From: Crocinitomix sp. | GTDB lineage: Bacteria; Bacteroidota; Bacteroidia; Flavobacteriales_D; Crocinitomicaceae | Assembly: GCA_044361315.1 (NCBI GenBank) | Contig: JBIKJA010000012.1 | Location: 380 to 64,379 of the forward strand | Reading direction: 5' to 3' | Length of the DNA: 64,000 bases | Shown here: piece by piece, positions 43,330-49,709 of the stretch | Numbering within the stretch: position 1 is the first letter of the stretch | How the letters are laid out: each line of letters begins with the position of its first letter | Made by a program: the position numbers and the translations under genes | The notes under the pieces: model-generated | Database searches by the model: none | Seen by the model: only the letters and a program-made list of their open reading frames with translations | What the model was told of the DNA's origin: nothing

Positions 43330-44481
43330 TTATTGTTTAATAAATTTTTCCTTTTGAATGCCTTGGTTTGAAATTGAGGTGAAGATATAGCATCCTGTTT
43401 CGAGAGTAGAAATGTCAATTCGTTGATTTACCACCACTCCTGCCTGAACCAAAGTACCGGCCAAATCATAAATTTGATACTCCTGATTTTGAACCAATTG
43501 AACCAATTGAATCGACTCATTTACAGGATTTGGATAAATCAGTTGTTGAGCTGTGGTGGTTTCATCAGAAAGTCCTAATGTTGGTGGATTCGCACAGATA
43601 ATGTCGAAAGTGTAATTGGTGCCAGTTCCAGTTAATTCTTCGACGGTTGCCCAAGTTTCACTTGATTGATACAACCATGTTTCAAGCCAAGGAGTTAACA
43701 CTTCTAAAATTGCGGTGTGTTGTGCTTCTTCTGAAATCGTTTCGACCCCAAAACAAATAAGTTCGCCCAATTCACAAACTGCATTAGAATTCGCAAATTG
43801 GCAATGACTTCCTCCTAAAATAGTCACATATCCCTTGCATGGTGTTAAATTTTCATACATATCCAATTGATTCCCCACGGCTGGGGTCACACAATCTTCG
43901 TCTCCACTAAAAGTCAAGGTTGGCATAGTAATGTCATTAGCAGCGTCAATTGCAGAAGGATCGGTTTCAGCGGCAGCTAGACTAACCATGGTCGAAAGAG
44001 AACTCGTTGCAGCTGCAGCCAAAAATGCGGCACCACCACCCATCGAATGGCCAATAATTCCTGAAGTTGGTTTTACATTATCGTAAAAAATGGATGCCTC
44101 ACTCGCTCCGGCTTCTTGCAATTCGTTGATCACAAAAGCCAAATCCAAAGCAAAATCTTCATGAGACACTGTTACAAAATCCGTTTCAGTAGTTGGTAAA
44201 GCGACAATATAGCCAAGAGGAACCAAATGTTCCCACAAATAGGCATACGAATCATAATTCATTGCAAAACCATGCCCAATAGAAATCACTGGAAATTTTC
44301 CTTCGGACACGGCAACTCCTTCTCCTGCAGCTAAAGCGGGGTAGAAAATACGTGTTTCGATAGCTCGGTCGCGGGATTCATCCGTAAATAAAATCACAGT
44401 TGAGCCTATTTCAAATTGAGCAAAAAGACCTTTTGAACCAGTCAAAACAACACAGATTAAGAATGTTTTAAACAATTGCAT
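43330..44481 (-). CDS. Secreted alpha/beta hydrolase (dienelactone hydrolase/chlorophyllase-like) with T9SS CTD
   Basis: Signal peptide; GHGF, GHSMGGG nucleophile elbow, D.VTP, GGSHC; IYPNP...KEKFIKQ CTD. Confidence 0.85.
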   Translation of the reverse strand: MQLFKTFLICVVLTGSKGLFAQFEIGSTVILFTDESRDRAIETRIFYPALAAGEGVAVSEGKFPVISIGHGFAMNYDSYAYLWEHLVPLGYIVALPTTETDFVTVSHEDFALDLAFVINELQEAGASEASIFYDNVKPTSGIIGHSMGGGAAFLAAAATSSLSTMVSLAAAETDPSAIDAANDITMPTLTFSGDEDCVTPAVGNQLDMYENLTPCKGYVTILGGSHCQFANSNAVCELGELICFGVETISEEAQHTAILEVLTPWLETWLYQSSETWATVEELTGTGTNYTFDIICANPPTLGLSDETTTAQQLIYPNPVNESIQLVQLVQNQEYQIYDLAGTLVQAGVVVNQRIDISTLETGCYIFTSISNQGIQKEKFIKQ

Positions 44482-44504
44482 AGCTATTTTTTTTTCGAAG
44501 ATAA

Positions 44505-44543
44505 TAAAAAAAGGCGATTCACCAATTGGATGAATCGCCTTTT
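44505..44543 (-). terminator. Intrinsic terminator after porP/sprF
   Basis: AAAAGGCGATTCA(44509-21)/TGAATCGCCTTTT(44531-43) 13-bp stem with a T tract on the minus strand. Confidence 0.8.
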
Positions 44544-44628
44544 AAAGCAAAGAAACCAAATTAGGGAACCACCCCTACTTGTCCTTTCATTTTAGATTCA
44601 ACAAATTAAATCCAAAACACTCTTTATT

Positions 44629-45603
44629 TTAAAACGATGGACAAGAAATCGTTCTAAATCTTTTTGGTGTCTCTTGACAGGCAAAATTAAACCCGAGAGA
44701 CAATTCATGCGATCCTCCTGATGCATTTGTTAATGGCGAAATGGTAATATCATAACTATAACCTACTCTAAAAACCCCTGCATCAATTCCAACAGACATA
44801 ATAAACGCATCTCTTGGACGCCACCAAGCACCTGCTGTAAATGCTCCATATTTAATATAGGTACCGACATTTAACTGCATAAACCCGTCTTGATATGTAT
44901 AGATAACGTTGGGAGAGATAGAAGTTACATTTGCGTATTGAGAACCTCCTCCAAATTTAATATTAGCTCCCATATGTCCTGTAAAACGCATTGGCATTCT
45001 TGAATTTCCTAAGATCAAGGTTTCTTGTGGCGTATTTAGATGTTTGGCAGCAAATCCAAAGTAGAAATTTTCAGAATAACCAACTAATCCAGCTGAAACA
45101 TCGAAAAATCCGCGGGTTCCCCATCCGTTTTCTAACAATTGTCCACGTGGCAAATCTCCTGTTTGGTAGATAAATCCTCTTCGTGGATCAATTTGATCTC
45201 CAAAAGTTAATTTAGACCAATCTAAAAACTTTTGATTCCATGTCGCTTGTGCGCCAAATAACAAAGTGAACTTTCTGGTAACTTGTAAATGATAAGAATA
45301 CGCTAAGTTGATCGTTGACCAATTGAGTGTATTCTTGCCAGCCATATCGTTTGTTACCATCAACGCAACACCGCCTTGAAGAACATTGACAAATCGATCG
45401 TACGAAACACTGTTCGTAACAAAAGCTCCTGAGATATTAGCCCATTGATTTCGGTAATTCATGTTTAGTCGAGGACATCCATGAGTGCCCGCCATCGCAG
45501 GGTTTAAATAAATAGGATTCGCATAAAATTGTGTAAATTCAGGATCTTGTGAAAATCCATGGAATGAGCACAAAACGATTAATATTGTGGTTATTTTTTT
45601 CAT
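44629..45603 (-). CDS. PorP/SprF family T9SS membrane protein
   Basis: QDPEFTQFY..P.YLNPAMAG, YRNQW, SYDIT...L...SGGSHELS. Confidence 0.92.
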   Translation of the reverse strand: MKKITTILIVLCSFHGFSQDPEFTQFYANPIYLNPAMAGTHGCPRLNMNYRNQWANISGAFVTNSVSYDRFVNVLQGGVALMVTNDMAGKNTLNWSTINLAYSYHLQVTRKFTLLFGAQATWNQKFLDWSKLTFGDQIDPRRGFIYQTGDLPRGQLLENGWGTRGFFDVSAGLVGYSENFYFGFAAKHLNTPQETLILGNSRMPMRFTGHMGANIKFGGGSQYANVTSISPNVIYTYQDGFMQLNVGTYIKYGAFTAGAWWRPRDAFIMSVGIDAGVFRVGYSYDITISPLTNASGGSHELSLGFNFACQETPKRFRTISCPSF

Positions 45604-45608
45604 TTTTT

Positions 45609-47276
45609 TTATTTAAATCGTGCACTTTTAAATTCGCTATTAAACCTTATCCCAATGTTGTGGGAGTATAATTGTGATGCTGCTATCATTGATGTTGTTC
45701 GGTCTAGTTGATAAAAGCATTTAAATTTTTTAAGTTTCATCCCCATAGCAGCAGTAAAATCCTGATTTGTTGAGTACGACCCTCCTAATGTAAATCGGTT
45801 AATCTTAAAATTTAGACCTGCCCATGCTTCTGCATGTTCACCAAATTTACGTGCTGAAACGAATGGACTAAACACCATCTTTTTATTGGAAGATTCGATA
45901 TCTGTTCCTAAAATCCCATTAAATAGAATTGGCGATTTCATTGGCTCTAGTTTGCCTTCTTCAAGATATCCCGTTGCATAATGGCGATTCAAATTATCTG
46001 CACTTAATCCGAAATAAAAATTCTCAGTGTTCAATACAAATCCTAGTGCGATGTCTTTATACCATAATCTATCATAAAATGTGCTAGGTTCGTCATAATC
46101 GATAGCTATTGGCAAGCCTCTGTCTAATTCATACGTTTTTGCACCTTTTAAATTAAATGTATTCCCAGTTAACATTCCAAGTGTCACCTTTACACCTGTT
46201 TCTAAAACGACTTTATTTGATAATTTAATTTTAGGAGAATAAACAAGATCAATTGAATAATCTGCGACCCCATTTCCGTTGTATATTTTCGAATTTACAA
46301 TCATCCCAATTCCACCTCTAAATTCCGGCACATATCCATCAATACTAATCTGGGTGGTTTGACTACTATAATTTGAACCTAGCCATTGGTTACGGTGCTT
46401 AAATTCGACCCGTGACGCCAACATACCTCCGGCAAATGCTGGATTGAAAGAAAGTAGGTCATTTTCCGGTAAAAGCATTTGAGGATCCCGAAGGTTAATC
46501 AATCCAACTGGATAACCAAACATTTTTTCGACTTTACGATAAATACGTTTTGTTTTATTGGCAAAGGACGAAGGACTCACTTTACTCTTTTTACTCAAAT
46601 CGATTTTACGTTCGGAAAATCCTGGATTCGCTGCATATTCGGATAAATAATTTTTTTGCAGTAATTTATCTTGCTCCTGTTGTTTAGCTTTATTTTTCTT
46701 AACAGTTGATGATGTAAAATTCCGTGAACCATTTTGCTCTTGATCATCCACCTCGTATTGATTGGTGGCAGCTAAATTTTCTACTCGATTCATGCTGACA
46801 GGATTTGAAACATTCATCACCCCGTAGTTTGATCTAATTAATAAATTAGCTTGTGAACCTAATTGTGCAGTTGAGTATGGTTGATTTTGTCCTTTTAGAT
46901 TTTGTCTCGCTGTGCTGCTTTGTTGACTGTTTTCATAGTTTAATTCTCCCGTGTTTTTATAGTTTGAAGAAAAATCACCCGATTTGATAGAATTATCATT
47001 AAAATAAACTCCACCAACCACTGCAATAAAAATTGCAACAATTGCGGCTGCACTCCAACTATACCAGCCAGCAAATCTTCGTTTACGTTCGAGTTTGTGT
47101 TGATTTGTATAAATTACATTTTCATCTTCGATAGTAGCATGTTGCCATGCCTCGGCATCCATTTCAAATTCTGGATGATCTTCAAGAAATTGTTCAAATG
47201 TTTCGGCTTCGGAGGCGGTGAGATTTCCTTCCAAATAATCGAACATCCACCTGTCAAAATTTTCAGGTATATTCAT
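45609..47276 (-). CDS. Anti-sigma-like N-domain + TM helix + low-complexity linker + PorP/SprF-like beta-barrel
   Basis: FDYLEGNL...F..FL..HP..., basic patch then TM WSAAAIVAIFIAVVGGVYF; ~165 aa S/N/Q/K-rich linker; then FNPAFAG...HRNQW...GGIG, paralleling the neighbouring PorP. Confidence 0.75.
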   Translation of the reverse strand: MNIPENFDRWMFDYLEGNLTASEAETFEQFLEDHPEFEMDAEAWQHATIEDENVIYTNQHKLERKRRFAGWYSWSAAAIVAIFIAVVGGVYFNDNSIKSGDFSSNYKNTGELNYENSQQSSTARQNLKGQNQPYSTAQLGSQANLLIRSNYGVMNVSNPVSMNRVENLAATNQYEVDDQEQNGSRNFTSSTVKKNKAKQQEQDKLLQKNYLSEYAANPGFSERKIDLSKKSKVSPSSFANKTKRIYRKVEKMFGYPVGLINLRDPQMLLPENDLLSFNPAFAGGMLASRVEFKHRNQWLGSNYSSQTTQISIDGYVPEFRGGIGMIVNSKIYNGNGVADYSIDLVYSPKIKLSNKVVLETGVKVTLGMLTGNTFNLKGAKTYELDRGLPIAIDYDEPSTFYDRLWYKDIALGFVLNTENFYFGLSADNLNRHYATGYLEEGKLEPMKSPILFNGILGTDIESSNKKMVFSPFVSARKFGEHAEAWAGLNFKINRFTLGGSYSTNQDFTAAMGMKLKKFKCFYQLDRTTSMIAASQLYSHNIGIRFNSEFKSARFK

Positions 47277-47761
47277 ATAAGTACCGTTAGATCGTTTAAC
47301 TGCTTTTTAATTTTATTTCGAGCCCTGAATAAATAGACTTTTACTTGTGCCTCTGACAGCTCGAGCATATCGCCTATTTCTTTGTAATTATATCCTTCAA
47401 GATCACGGAGCAAAACAATTGATTTTTGAACTGGAGGAAGCATAGCGAGACTTTTCTCGATTACTTCTTTCATTTCCATTTCACGCGAATGGCATTCGGC
47501 GGTATCTTTAGAAGTATTATTTTCTGTATAAGACATCCGACTATTTTTCTTAATTAAATTTATCAACGCATTGTGTGCGCACGTAAATAACCAAGCTTTT
47601 GCTTTTTCGACTTCAATTTTTTTTCTGTTTTTCCATAGTTTTTCAAAGACATCTTGCACAATATCATCTGCATCCTCGGCACTTTTTAAGTACTTCAACG
47701 CATAGCCATACAGTCTTCCGGAGAATTCTTTAACGGCGATATTGTATTCTTTTCTTGTCAA
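47273..47761 (-). CDS. ECF RNA polymerase sigma factor
   Basis: DADDIVQDVF, WLFTCAHN, LRDLEGYNYKEIG, VKVYLFRAR; TTG start; stop overlaps the anti-sigma ATG. Confidence 0.92.
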   Translation of the reverse strand: MTRKEYNIAVKEFSGRLYGYALKYLKSAEDADDIVQDVFEKLWKNRKKIEVEKAKAWLFTCAHNALINLIKKNSRMSYTENNTSKDTAECHSREMEMKEVIEKSLAMLPPVQKSIVLLRDLEGYNYKEIGDMLELSEAQVKVYLFRARNKIKKQLNDLTVLI

Positions 47762-47948
47762 TTGAAGGATATTAATTAAAATTTCAGTTCCCTTTTTAAA
47801 CAGTTAAAACAATCTCACTACTCTAAAAGTTACACCTTCTAAAATTCATATACGATTATTTTTTTACAAGTTACAAATAATATTAGGAATCACCGTTGTA
47901 TTGGATAAATTTACTATCTTTCAACACAAGATATAATTCAAAAACACT

Positions 47949-49709
47949 ATGGAGATTAAACGTTTATTTGACCTGCCTTATTATCAATTGGAAAATTTTC
48001 CACAACCAGACGCTTTTGCGGACAAAATTAATGGAGAATGGATAAAAACTTCTACTAAATCCTATGTAGATCAGGCAAATGCTTTGAGTCGTGGTTTATT
48101 AAAGTTAGGAATTCAGGACGGAGATAAAATAGCCATGATTTCCAATAATCGGTCTGAATGGAATATTTGTGACATTGGGATTCAACAAATTGGTGGCATT
48201 TCGGTTCCTGTTTACCCAACGATTAGTGCAGATGTTTATGATTATATATTCAATGATGCCGAAGTGAAAATTTGTTTTGTTTCTGATCAGGAATTATATG
48301 ACAAGGTTTTATCAATTAAAGACAAAGTAAGCAGTTTGACGCATGTTTTTACTTTCAACGACGTTGAAGGAGCTATCTCTTGGAAAACTTTACTCGAAGA
48401 CGCCGACTCGAGTTTAGATTCCGAAATTGAAAAAAGAAAATACGACATTTCGTATGAGGATTTGGTTACGATTATCTACACCTCAGGAACAACGGGCAAT
48501 CCGAAAGGAGTAATGCTGTCGCATAAAAACTTATTAAGCAATGTGATTGCGTGTAAACCAAGACTTCCAGTTAGCCCTGGAGCAAGATCTTTAAGTTTTT
48601 TACCCGTGTGTCACGTGTATGAACGCATGTTATTGTATCTATACCAATATACTGGTGTGGCTGTCTATTTTGCAGAATCTATGGATACCATTGGGGATAA
48701 TTTGAAAGAAGTAAAACCTCATGTTTTTACTGCAGTACCAAGGTTACTTGAAAAAGTCTACGATAAGATAATGGCTAAAGGTGAAGCCCTGACAGGAATT
48801 AAACGGAAGTTGTTTTTCTGGGCAGTTGCTTTAGGTGATGAATACGATGTAAAAGGAAAATCAAGCTGGTACCTATTCAAGTTAAAAATCGCACGGAAAT
48901 TAATTTTTAGTAAATGGAAAGAGGCACTAGGTGGAAATACCTTGGCGGTTGCCTCGGGAAGTGCTGCCCTTCAACCTCGTTTGGCTAGAATCTATTTAGC
49001 TGCTGGAATTCCTGTAATGGAAGGATATGGATTAACAGAAACATCTCCTGTAATTAGCGTAAACTACGAAGAAGGCAACAACGTGCGCATTGGAACTACC
49101 GGAACGGTGATTGATGGAGTGACCGTAAAAATTGCAGAAGATGGAGAAATTTTAGTGAAAGGACCAAATGTGATGATGGGTTATTATAAATTACCTGAAA
49201 AAACAGCCGAAGATATTGATGCGGATGGTTGGTTTCACACAGGTGATATTGGAACGTTTGAAGAAGGAAAGTTTCTTAAAATTACCGATCGTAAAAAGGA
49301 AATGTTCAAAACCTCTGGCGGTAAATATATTGCACCACAGGTGATGGAAAATAAGTTTAAAGAATCGCGCTTTATTGAACAAATAATGGTGATTGGAGAA
49401 AATCAAAAAATGCCTGCGGCCTTTATTGTTCCTGCCTTTGATTTTATTCGCGAATGGGCGAAAAAGAAAAACTATTCAATTGGTACAACGAATGCTGAAA
49501 TTTCGGCCAATGAACTTGTTCGTGCACGAATTGAAAAAGATGTAAATACCCTCAACCAAAGTTTTGGTCAATGGGAGCAAATTAAACGATTTGAATTGGT
49601 TGATCATATTTGGACACCAGAAGCAGGTGAACTTACTCCAACGTTAAAACCAAAAAGAAGAGTTCTTATGGAAATTCATCAAGATTTATTTAAACGAATT
49701 TACGGTTAG
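47949..49709 (+). CDS. Long-chain fatty acid--CoA ligase (AMP-binding)
   Basis: YTSGTTGNPKGV, EGYGLTETSP, FHTGDIG, DRKK. Confidence 0.92.
   Translation: MEIKRLFDLPYYQLENFPQPDAFADKINGEWIKTSTKSYVDQANALSRGLLKLGIQDGDKIAMISNNRSEWNICDIGIQQIGGISVPVYPTISADVYDYIFNDAEVKICFVSDQELYDKVLSIKDKVSSLTHVFTFNDVEGAISWKTLLEDADSSLDSEIEKRKYDISYEDLVTIIYTSGTTGNPKGVMLSHKNLLSNVIACKPRLPVSPGARSLSFLPVCHVYERMLLYLYQYTGVAVYFAESMDTIGDNLKEVKPHVFTAVPRLLEKVYDKIMAKGEALTGIKRKLFFWAVALGDEYDVKGKSSWYLFKLKIARKLIFSKWKEALGGNTLAVASGSAALQPRLARIYLAAGIPVMEGYGLTETSPVISVNYEEGNNVRIGTTGTVIDGVTVKIAEDGEILVKGPNVMMGYYKLPEKTAEDIDADGWFHTGDIGTFEEGKFLKITDRKKEMFKTSGGKYIAPQVMENKFKESRFIEQIMVIGENQKMPAAFIVPAFDFIREWAKKKNYSIGTTNAEISANELVRARIEKDVNTLNQSFGQWEQIKRFELVDHIWTPEAGELTPTLKPKRRVLMEIHQDLFKRIYG

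Follow-up and report, generated by a model that had tools for sequence, protein, structure and literature searches.

The described systems closest to the locus analyzed here are the Dma anti-sigma factors of Bacteroidota, in which an N-terminal sigma-binding region (residues 1-40 of Dma1 suffice for the sigma factor Das1) is followed by a transmembrane (TM) helix, a disordered tether and a C-terminal β-barrel (PMC10927553). The Dma barrel is an eight-stranded domain of the OMP_b-brl_2 family; proteolytic fragments of these proteins have been reported, and perturbation of the outer membrane (OM) has been proposed as the signal (PMC10927553). Here we describe a three-gene operon of Crocinitomix sp. 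(Bacteroidota; Flavobacteriales_D; Crocinitomicaceae; assembly GCA_044361315.1), which lies within a 64,000-nucleotide stretch of contig JBIKJA010000012.1 (positions 380 to 64,379; hereafter, the window). The operon consists of genes for an extracytoplasmic function (ECF) sigma factor, for a fusion protein in which an anti-sigma-like N-terminal domain is joined, through a predicted TM helix and a long tether, to a barrel of the PorP/SprF family of type IX secretion system (T9SS) components, and for a stand-alone PorP/SprF protein, denoted PorP2 (Table 1). We consider it probable, if well short of certain, that these genes form a signaling module built on the Dma plan with a T9SS barrel and including feedback on the supply of PorP.

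Proteins of the PorP/SprF family are shuttles that take substrates with type-B C-terminal domains (CTDs) at the translocon's exit and set the fate of these substrates at the cell surface; most of the shuttles serve the product of a neighboring substrate gene, and one orphan shuttle serves several orphan substrates (PMC12618676). SprF has, in its C-terminal tail, a Cys-x-Cys motif that is disulfide-linked to Cys343 of GldK on the moving track (PMC12635249). Examples of the family include SprF, which acts with SprB, Fjoh_3951 with Fjoh_3952, the orphans Fjoh_1667/1677, and PorP of Porphyromonas gingivalis with PG1035 and PorE (PMC9143113, PMC12618676, PMC12635249). The Dma papers mention neither PorP nor the T9SS, and in the literature searched, including the ECF reclassification and a review of non-canonical ECF sigma factors, no anti-sigma factor that we found is described as having a PorP/SprF barrel. 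This agrees with a preliminary description of the locus, made from the sequence without database searches, according to which this barrel class is not known to have been described in an anti-sigma factor.

Table 1. Coordinates of the operon, of the predicted parts of the fusion protein and of the promoter-like elements (positions in the window)
Feature	Position	Strand	Remarks
ECF sigma factor gene	47273-47761	minus	162 aa, TTG start
Fusion gene	45609-47276	minus	555 aa
PorP2 gene (stand-alone PorP/SprF)	44629-45603	minus	324 aa; signal peptide; C-x10-SCPSF tail; Pfam 1.5e-59
Intrinsic terminator, operon end	44509-44543	minus	15-bp stem with 6 GC pairs, followed by T-run
Fusion aa 1-50, predicted cytoplasmic three-helix anti-sigma-like domain	47127..47276	minus	zinc-less, zf-HC2-related
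Fusion aa 70-92, predicted single TM helix, N-in	47001..47069	minus	AlphaFold2 helix, conserved hydrophobic window
Fusion aa 93-262, predicted disordered periplasmic tether	46491..47000	minus	N/S/T-rich
Fusion aa 263-555 plus stop, predicted 14-strand PorP/SprF-type barrel	45609..46490	minus	without C-tail cysteines
P1, ECF-type promoter-like element	47851..47875	minus	TGTAAC (47875-47870), 15-nt spacer, CGTA (47854-47851)
P2 element	47805..47834	minus	TGTAACTTT (-35-like, 47834-47826) and ATTGTTTTA (-10-like, 47813-47805)

The three genes are tightly coupled and end in a terminator, as the preliminary description had it: the open reading frames (ORFs) of the sigma factor and the fusion are translationally coupled through 4 shared nucleotides (47273-47276), the fusion and PorP2 genes are 5 nucleotides apart (45604-45608), and one RNA contig stops at position 44536 of the terminator. 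Metatranscriptome contigs from closely related strains (three runs) cover the sigma factor gene and read on into the fusion gene, and one such contig spans the whole of the PorP2 gene and crosses the 5-nucleotide gap. Because the RNA contigs cross both gene junctions, the operon is expressed in nature and is at least partly co-transcribed. Approximately 20 metagenome runs from lakes and freshwater contain the locus nearly word for word; in three independent lake runs, single contigs cover positions 44400-48000 with no differences and no gaps, and a fourth metagenome contig over the same region shows substitutions only. More than 100 clusters of full-length fusion homologs (537-658 amino acids) were identified, with names assigned to Crocinitomix, Crocinitomicaceae and Paracrocinitomix; 84 genomes of the family, as well as other families, contain the ORF without interruption, and AlphaFold2 (AF2) folds the barrel confidently in a single chain that includes the tether. 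The homolog clusters, the genome survey and the metagenome contigs thus rule out the concern that the fusion is unique to one assembly and arose because a stop codon was missed, the reading frame shifted or an anti-sigma gene was joined to a porP gene as a chimera; we found nothing in favor of such an artefact and give it essentially no weight.

The family assignment of the barrel is clear. Residues 275-545 of the fusion align with positions 17-273 of the 273 positions of the PorP_SprF hidden Markov model (HMM) of Pfam (PF11751; E = 8.8e-31, 107.9 bits compared with a threshold of 22.3), and the barrel scores 110.5 bits with the NCBIfam model TIGR03519 (cut-off 90.55). The motifs NPAFAG, RNQW and GGIG, on which the C-terminal region had initially been likened to PorP/SprF, are read in the translation of the fusion, and the full-length HMM match, far above the threshold, bears this likeness out. 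In the AF2 model of the fusion (an alignment of 86 sequences; mean predicted local distance difference test score, pLDDT, 77), this region forms a confident barrel of 14 strands (residues 289-546, pLDDT >90), for which the best Foldseek matches are the 14-strand OmpG, the FadL/TodX family and PorV from the T9SS translocon structures, with no solved PorP among the top 50 matches. No match to OMP_b-brl_2 was found in the fusion with Pfam, and neither a FecR/DUF4974 domain nor a TonB-dependent receptor was detected in the fusion or its neighbors with Pfam and NCBIfam. Among the PorP/SprF proteins, the fused barrel is closest to the clade of the core PorP, that is, the protein encoded beside porU, porV and gldJ, with a profile score of 148 bits compared with 56 bits for the next paralog. 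Within the family, PorP2 is much the better conserved protein, with 74-88% identity to the copy in the window compared with 39-49% for the fusion. No cysteine occurs among the last 30 residues of any of the 114 fusion homologs, and 96 of the 114 have none past residue 100. By these comparisons, the fused barrel descends from the core PorP clade, from which it has diverged strongly, and is cysteine-less.

The AF2 model also recovers the single TM helix and the long linker that had been proposed to connect an anti-sigma-like N-terminus to the PorP/SprF region. All full-length homologs retain the TM helix, each with a cluster of K/R residues ahead of it, for which reason the N-terminus is predicted to be cytoplasmic. 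The tether is largely disordered (pLDDT <50 for residues 93-187) and ends in two conserved helices, at residues 190-206 and 238-253, the latter with the sequence KRIYRKVEKMFGY; in the family, it has a median length of 187 residues (153-268), consists of approximately 33% N, S and T, and contains no Cys. A conserved basic helix, K.KR.YRKIEKM.GYPVGL, stands directly ahead of the segment NLRDP...NPAFAGG with which the barrel starts, and this segment aligns with the mature N-terminus of the stand-alone PorP (QDPEFTQFYANPIYLNPAMAG). The alignment suggests that the anti-sigma-like domain, the TM helix and the tether in effect replace the PorP signal peptide.

The N-terminal domain is modeled with three helices (residues 7-15, 21-33 and 35-47; pLDDT approximately 92). 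Its two best NCBIfam matches are anti-sigma models, aligned N-terminus to N-terminus (E approximately 0.01), and zf-HC2 matches, all below the Pfam threshold, are found in 9 of 29 fusion homologs. Anti-sigma domains solved together with a sigma factor (RsiW, ChrR and RslA) account for five of the nine entries in the Foldseek list for this domain, all non-significant. A connection to known anti-sigma factors is provided by two genomes of another family (loci L030 and L031), in which an ortholog of the sigma factor (41% identity) is followed by a partner protein of approximately 375 residues; the N-terminal repeats of these partners align with residues 5-102 of the fusion in BLAST searches (E approximately 1e-9 to 3e-9), and the L031 partner passes the Pfam threshold for zf-HC2 (28.5 compared with 22.2 bits). 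An exhaustive search with a profile of the N-terminal domain retrieved 5,986 cluster representatives, 1,697 of them with an E-value of 1e-10 or better, and zf-HC2 was the sole recurrent Pfam family among 81 of these relatives. The part of the preliminary description that called the N-terminus anti-sigma-like therefore stands through transitive homology to zf-HC2 and through the sigma factor context; direct identification with HMMs remains below threshold. On these grounds, we regard the domain as related to the class I anti-sigma domain, but as diverged and zinc-less, and not as a member of the zinc-binding anti-sigma (ZAS) group, and we infer that it would bind the sigma factor.

Many of the relatives are unfused proteins that contain three to six tandem copies of the domain ahead of a TM helix, an arrangement that is unusual for anti-sigma domains. 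The unfused proteins that we inspected have a short C-terminal tail, and three of the four examined over their full length end with a likely terminal β-strand; in the L030 and L031 partners, there is also a basic helix ahead of it. The tail of such proteins might dock onto a separately encoded barrel.

The sigma factor contains regions 2 and 4 only (Pfam Sigma70_r2, 1.2e-17, and r4_2, 1.2e-15) and passes the cut-off of the NCBIfam equivalog NF058625, the sigma_PG0214 / GFO_1088 family (138 compared with 130 bits). In P. gingivalis, PG0214 is known as SigCH and is expressed together with the hypothetical genes PG0215-0218. Orthologs of the sigma factor are present in all four fusion-bearing genomes tested and in none of eight fusion-less genomes, seven of which hold only a paralog whereas one yields no match at all. 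Judging by these genome comparisons, the sigma factor and the fusion are gained and lost together, and the 4-nucleotide overlap of the two genes is kept in 13 of 13 loci of the family and across six families.

The third gene of the operon links the module to the core of the secretion system. PorP2, which also matches TIGR03519 (4e-70), is 89% identical to the core PorP of the same genome (C4:141007-141981), which is flanked by porV, porU and gldJ. In fusion-less genomes, the orthologs of PorP2 are 47-56% identical to it and, in three of the four loci inspected, lie between a divergent porU-porV pair and gldJ-murF (the identities of the porU, porV, gldJ and murF neighbors were confirmed with NCBIfam). 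Most fusion-bearing genomes contain both of these copies, whereas several fusion-less genomes hold just one. The maximum likelihood tree does not separate an operon clade from a core clade; instead, the copies are grouped in pairs according to genome or genus (as in G499 and G512, with 100/99 support), and the label "operon" changes seven times on this tree, a number equal to that obtained with shuffled labels. The topology indicates that the operon and core copies evolve in concert, a signature of gene conversion, and this concerted evolution implies that the operon copy is kept functionally equivalent to the core PorP. An ancient, independent divergence of the two copies is rejected because the tree clusters them by genome. 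The possibility that PorP2 is a recent tandem duplicate of the fused barrel is rejected as well, given the identity of approximately 25% to that barrel compared with 89% to the core copy. PorP2 is encoded downstream of the fusion in 13 of 13 loci of the family and in six of seven loci from other families.

Both PorP2 and the core PorP end in the two-cysteine tail C-x10-SCPSF, which is kept in other families too. By analogy with SprF, the C-terminal tail of which bonds to GldK, this tail may serve to anchor the core PorP on the moving track. The genome encodes approximately 43 type-B CTD substrates above the threshold and approximately 12 PorP/SprF paralogs; eight PorP paralogs adjoin a substrate gene, whereas the core PorP and PorP2 are unpaired, and no type-B CTD gene adjoins the operon. 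Being unpaired in a genome with many substrates and few PorP paralogs, the core PorP and PorP2 are good candidates for the role of a generic shuttle of orphan type-B substrates. A further unpaired PorP is encoded beside gldK (C4:209004-209993).

Two promoter-like elements precede the sigma factor gene. The consensus of P1, TGTAAC-N15-CGT(T/A), is shared by 12 of 14 Crocinitomicaceae loci, the exceptions being L018 and L019, from which the CGT -10 box is missing, and RNA contigs end at positions 47846 and 47842, just 3' of the -10 box of P1. P1 is absent from the seven loci examined from other families. The P2 element, TGTAACTTT-N12-13-ATTGTTTTA, is present in all 14 loci of the family and also, 56-83 nucleotides upstream of the start of the sigma factor gene, in seven of seven loci from five other families. 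Since P2 is shared with other families and P1 is not, P2 is probably the ancestral of the two elements and probably represents the autoregulatory promoter of the module. A search for the exact P2 pattern gave hits in 11 of 14 fusion-bearing genomes and in none of six fusion-less genomes, and the reversed control gave no hits. A second P2 site was found in six genomes from at least three genera, in all six upstream of an orthologous lipoprotein gene (approximately 127-135 codons) that is followed by a SUFU-like gene (C9:53369-54083 in the same genome as the window; also L078, L081, L083, L085 and L095); the leader of the lipoprotein gene is 140-330 nucleotides long and contains conserved A-rich stretches. 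From the distribution of these sites, the output of the sigma factor is predicted to be small and to consist of its own operon, with the extra dose of core PorP, and the lipoprotein. A large regulon is rejected because the P1-type motif is not enriched in a genome-wide regular expression scan (13 occurrences compared with approximately 15 in shuffled sequences).

In the region C17:86373-89301, and in this genome only, a third P2-type site lies 34 nucleotides upstream of a gene for a 226-residue protein resembling outer-membrane proteins (OMP-like); the genes that follow encode a WD40 protein, which has a type-A T9SS sorting domain, and a 301-residue protein with an N-terminal CxxCxC motif. The octamer TGTAACTT is approximately 2.5-fold under-represented genome-wide relative to shuffled sequences (83 compared with approximately 215 occurrences). 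Upstream of two paralogous DUF5686/CarboxypepD_reg genes (C13:177706-180252 and C7:60168-62696) we identified the motif TGTAACTTT-N12-13-(C/T)GTC, which is kept in nearly all relatives, including fusion-less genomes (loci L054-L077), and matches the promoter of a paralogous sigma factor gene on C9, described below. Inclusion of the DUF5686 genes in the regulon of the fusion-associated sigma factor is rejected on account of the (C/T)GTC end, which resembles that of the C9 sigma factor promoter, and of the presence of the motif in fusion-less genomes; the two genes are probably the regulon of the split, Dma-like C9 system.

Of the Crocinitomicaceae, 84 of 151 genomes (19 of 29 genera) contain the fusion, nearly always in a single copy. 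At least five further families of the order have it as well, with the same synteny and with open frames of 566-700 codons. Among 400 genomes sampled evenly from the phylum, a full-length fusion was found only in the genome that contains the window; a phylum-wide distribution is thus rejected, and the fusion is confined to one order. Cultured carriers include Crocinitomix algicola and Paracrocinitomix mangrovi. The same genome also encodes a split system (C9:64905-67337) that consists of a sigma factor (NF058625, 121.9 bits), a 348-residue anti-sigma-like protein with the same N-terminal motif as the fusion, and a separate 291-residue OMP_b-brl_2 barrel; the L030 and L031 partners are likewise followed by a separate OMP_b-brl_2 barrel gene. 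The C9 system looks like an unfused counterpart of Dma1. Because such split systems are present in the same genome and at L030 and L031, the PorP fusion appears to be a paralogous offshoot of an older Bacteroidota module that combines an anti-sigma factor with an OM barrel, either fused (Dma) or separately encoded.

Immediately downstream of the operon, the window contains a gene (43330-44481, minus strand) for a PETase/chlorophyllase-like α/β-hydrolase with a type-A T9SS C-terminal sorting domain. Membership of this gene in the operon is rejected because a strong terminator intervenes and no match to it was found in the flanks of approximately 500 nucleotides of 13 related loci.

The architecture read in the preliminary description, an ECF sigma factor, a Dma-like anti-sigma factor with a PorP/SprF barrel as its outer domain, and a second porP, is thus well backed by the predictions and comparisons. 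Taken together, these observations can be accommodated in a model in which the N-terminal domain of the fusion would hold the sigma factor at the inner membrane, as Dma1(1-40) holds Das1, and the barrel would reside in the OM, so that one polypeptide would bridge the envelope; this two-membrane topology is deduced from the predicted structure. A change at the barrel would cause the tether to be cleaved, and intramembrane proteolysis would then free the sigma factor, as has been proposed for Dma1. This change could lie in a PorP-type partner that is lost or gained, with a type-B CTD substrate, the exit of the SprA translocon and the GldK/GldJ track as examples; alternatively, it could be a failure of barrel assembly. 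The freed sigma factor would then transcribe its own operon, and with it an extra dose of the core PorP shuttle, along with the lipoprotein gene. Under the reading that we prefer, the module would be a feedback loop through which the amount of the generic type-B shuttle follows demand. The third gene, being a duplicate, under concerted evolution, of the core PorP that is encoded beside porU, porV and gldJ, strengthens the link to the T9SS.

Several observations weigh against this interpretation. Besides the lack of enrichment of P1-type sites, PorP2 is the only T9SS gene in the predicted regulon, which is not obviously one of T9SS components or cargo; the approximately 130-residue lipoprotein belongs to no Pfam family; and the paralogous C9 sigma factor has a very similar -35 box, which makes cross-talk possible. 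Many PorP paralogs likewise have no cysteines in the tail, so the absence of cysteines from the fused barrel is merely suggestive. As for the N-terminal domain, its scores stay below the cut-offs of both zf-HC2 (PF13490; 12.9 compared with 22.2 bits) and NF052375 (17 compared with 100 bits), and no curated anti-sigma threshold of Pfam or NCBIfam is reached by the domain of the fusion in the window itself; residues 1-50 are without the Cys/His zinc ligands expected for ZAS (H-x3-C-x2-C); a profile search against PDB sequences yielded nothing relevant; and a separate model of the domain (pLDDT 82) obtained no significant Foldseek match.

The main rival is a generic envelope-stress system of the Dma type, in which the barrel would be a mere OM anchor that reports perturbation of the OM or of the BAM machinery, with no T9SS meaning. 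Dma1 and Dma2 operate with a plain eight-strand barrel and have OM perturbation as their proposed signal, the same genome and its relatives hold a paralogous system with an ordinary OMP_b-brl_2 barrel, and a mere anchor would be compatible with the high divergence of the fused barrel, its lack of tail cysteines and a predicted regulon that is not rich in T9SS genes. However, the barrel stems specifically from the core PorP clade and conserves the motifs of the PorP family together with a full-length HMM match, and the duplicate of the core PorP is retained downstream of the fusion and homogenized with the copy linked to porU and gldJ, which would be difficult to account for were the T9SS irrelevant; we accordingly deem the generic system unlikely. 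More doubtful is the view that the fusion is not an anti-sigma factor at all but a PorP tethered to the inner membrane, a structural or shuttle part of the T9SS with some other cytoplasmic partner, the sigma factor being regulated otherwise. The sub-threshold HMM and structural support for the N-terminal domain and its occurrence in tandem repeats speak for this possibility, which nonetheless appears highly improbable given that the 4-nucleotide overlap with the sigma factor gene is kept across six families, that the two genes co-occur strictly, that relatives of the domain which pass the zf-HC2 threshold always stand beside the same sigma factor family, and that the best family and fold matches are all anti-sigma factors. 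A variant that retains both the anti-sigma function and the T9SS connection, and that we rate as distinctly improbable, casts the fused cysteine-less barrel as a decoy shuttle that docks at the sites used by real PorP shuttles, either on type-B CTDs at SprA or transiently on the moving GldK/GldJ track, such that engagement pulls or exposes the tether, which is anchored in the inner membrane; cleavage of the tether and release of the sigma factor would then measure unmet shuttle demand or movement of the track mechanically. If the decoy variant were true, the fusion would be an anti-sigma factor gated by force or occupancy that couples secretion and gliding directly to transcription, with more core PorP as the answer.

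To our knowledge, T9SS regulation is essentially unstudied in the abundant freshwater and marine Flavobacteriales-type bacteria that carry the fusion. If the feedback reading holds, the module would provide the first case, outside PorXY-SigP of P. gingivalis, of a dedicated sigma/anti-sigma circuit with a link to components of the T9SS and of gliding. The barrel family has known partners, namely cargo with type-B CTDs, the exit of the translocon and the GldK track, which provides a short list of candidate signals, and the concerted evolution of the putatively inducible PorP with the core copy suggests that shuttle dosage is a regulated quantity. The cultured carriers make experiments feasible.

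Comparison with the described systems places the module in a wider context. It shares with Dma the ECF sigma factor gene upstream, the short N-terminal region, a single TM helix, a long tether and an OM barrel, an architecture that is predicted here; both are restricted to Bacteroidota, and in both the main output includes lipoproteins of unknown function (NigD for Dma1 and, by prediction, the approximately 130-residue protein here). The differences are that the fusion has a 14-strand PF11751 barrel in place of the eight-strand OMP_b-brl_2 barrel, that its operon adds a duplicate of a core T9SS PorP, and that its genome also holds the version with a split anti-sigma protein and a separate OMP_b-brl_2 barrel; furthermore, Dma is nearly phylum-wide whereas the fusion belongs to one order (at least six families), mostly in aquatic Bacteroidota. 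Compared with the PorP/SprF proteins, the C-terminal 290 residues of the fusion match the family HMMs end to end and form the 14-strand barrel, but the fusion has no signal peptide, no adjacent type-B substrate gene and no C-tail Cys, and the fused barrel evolves much faster than its stand-alone neighbor PorP2. In PorXY-SigP of P. gingivalis, an ECF sigma factor is likewise connected to the expression of T9SS components, but SigP belongs to another ECF group, has no anti-sigma factor and is stabilized by PorX (PMC4800418, PMC7712824), whereas the sigma factor described here is of the PG0214/SigCH family and is paired with a predicted membrane-spanning partner that contains a T9SS barrel. Finally, in FecA-FecR-FecI signaling and in that of SusC-like transducers with anti-sigma/ECF pairs in Bacteroides polysaccharide utilization loci, a signal at an OM barrel is also passed to an ECF sigma factor via an inner-membrane anti-sigma factor; there, two proteins, the TonB-dependent transducer and FecR, touch in the periplasm, whereas in the module described here both ends of this path would belong to one polypeptide.

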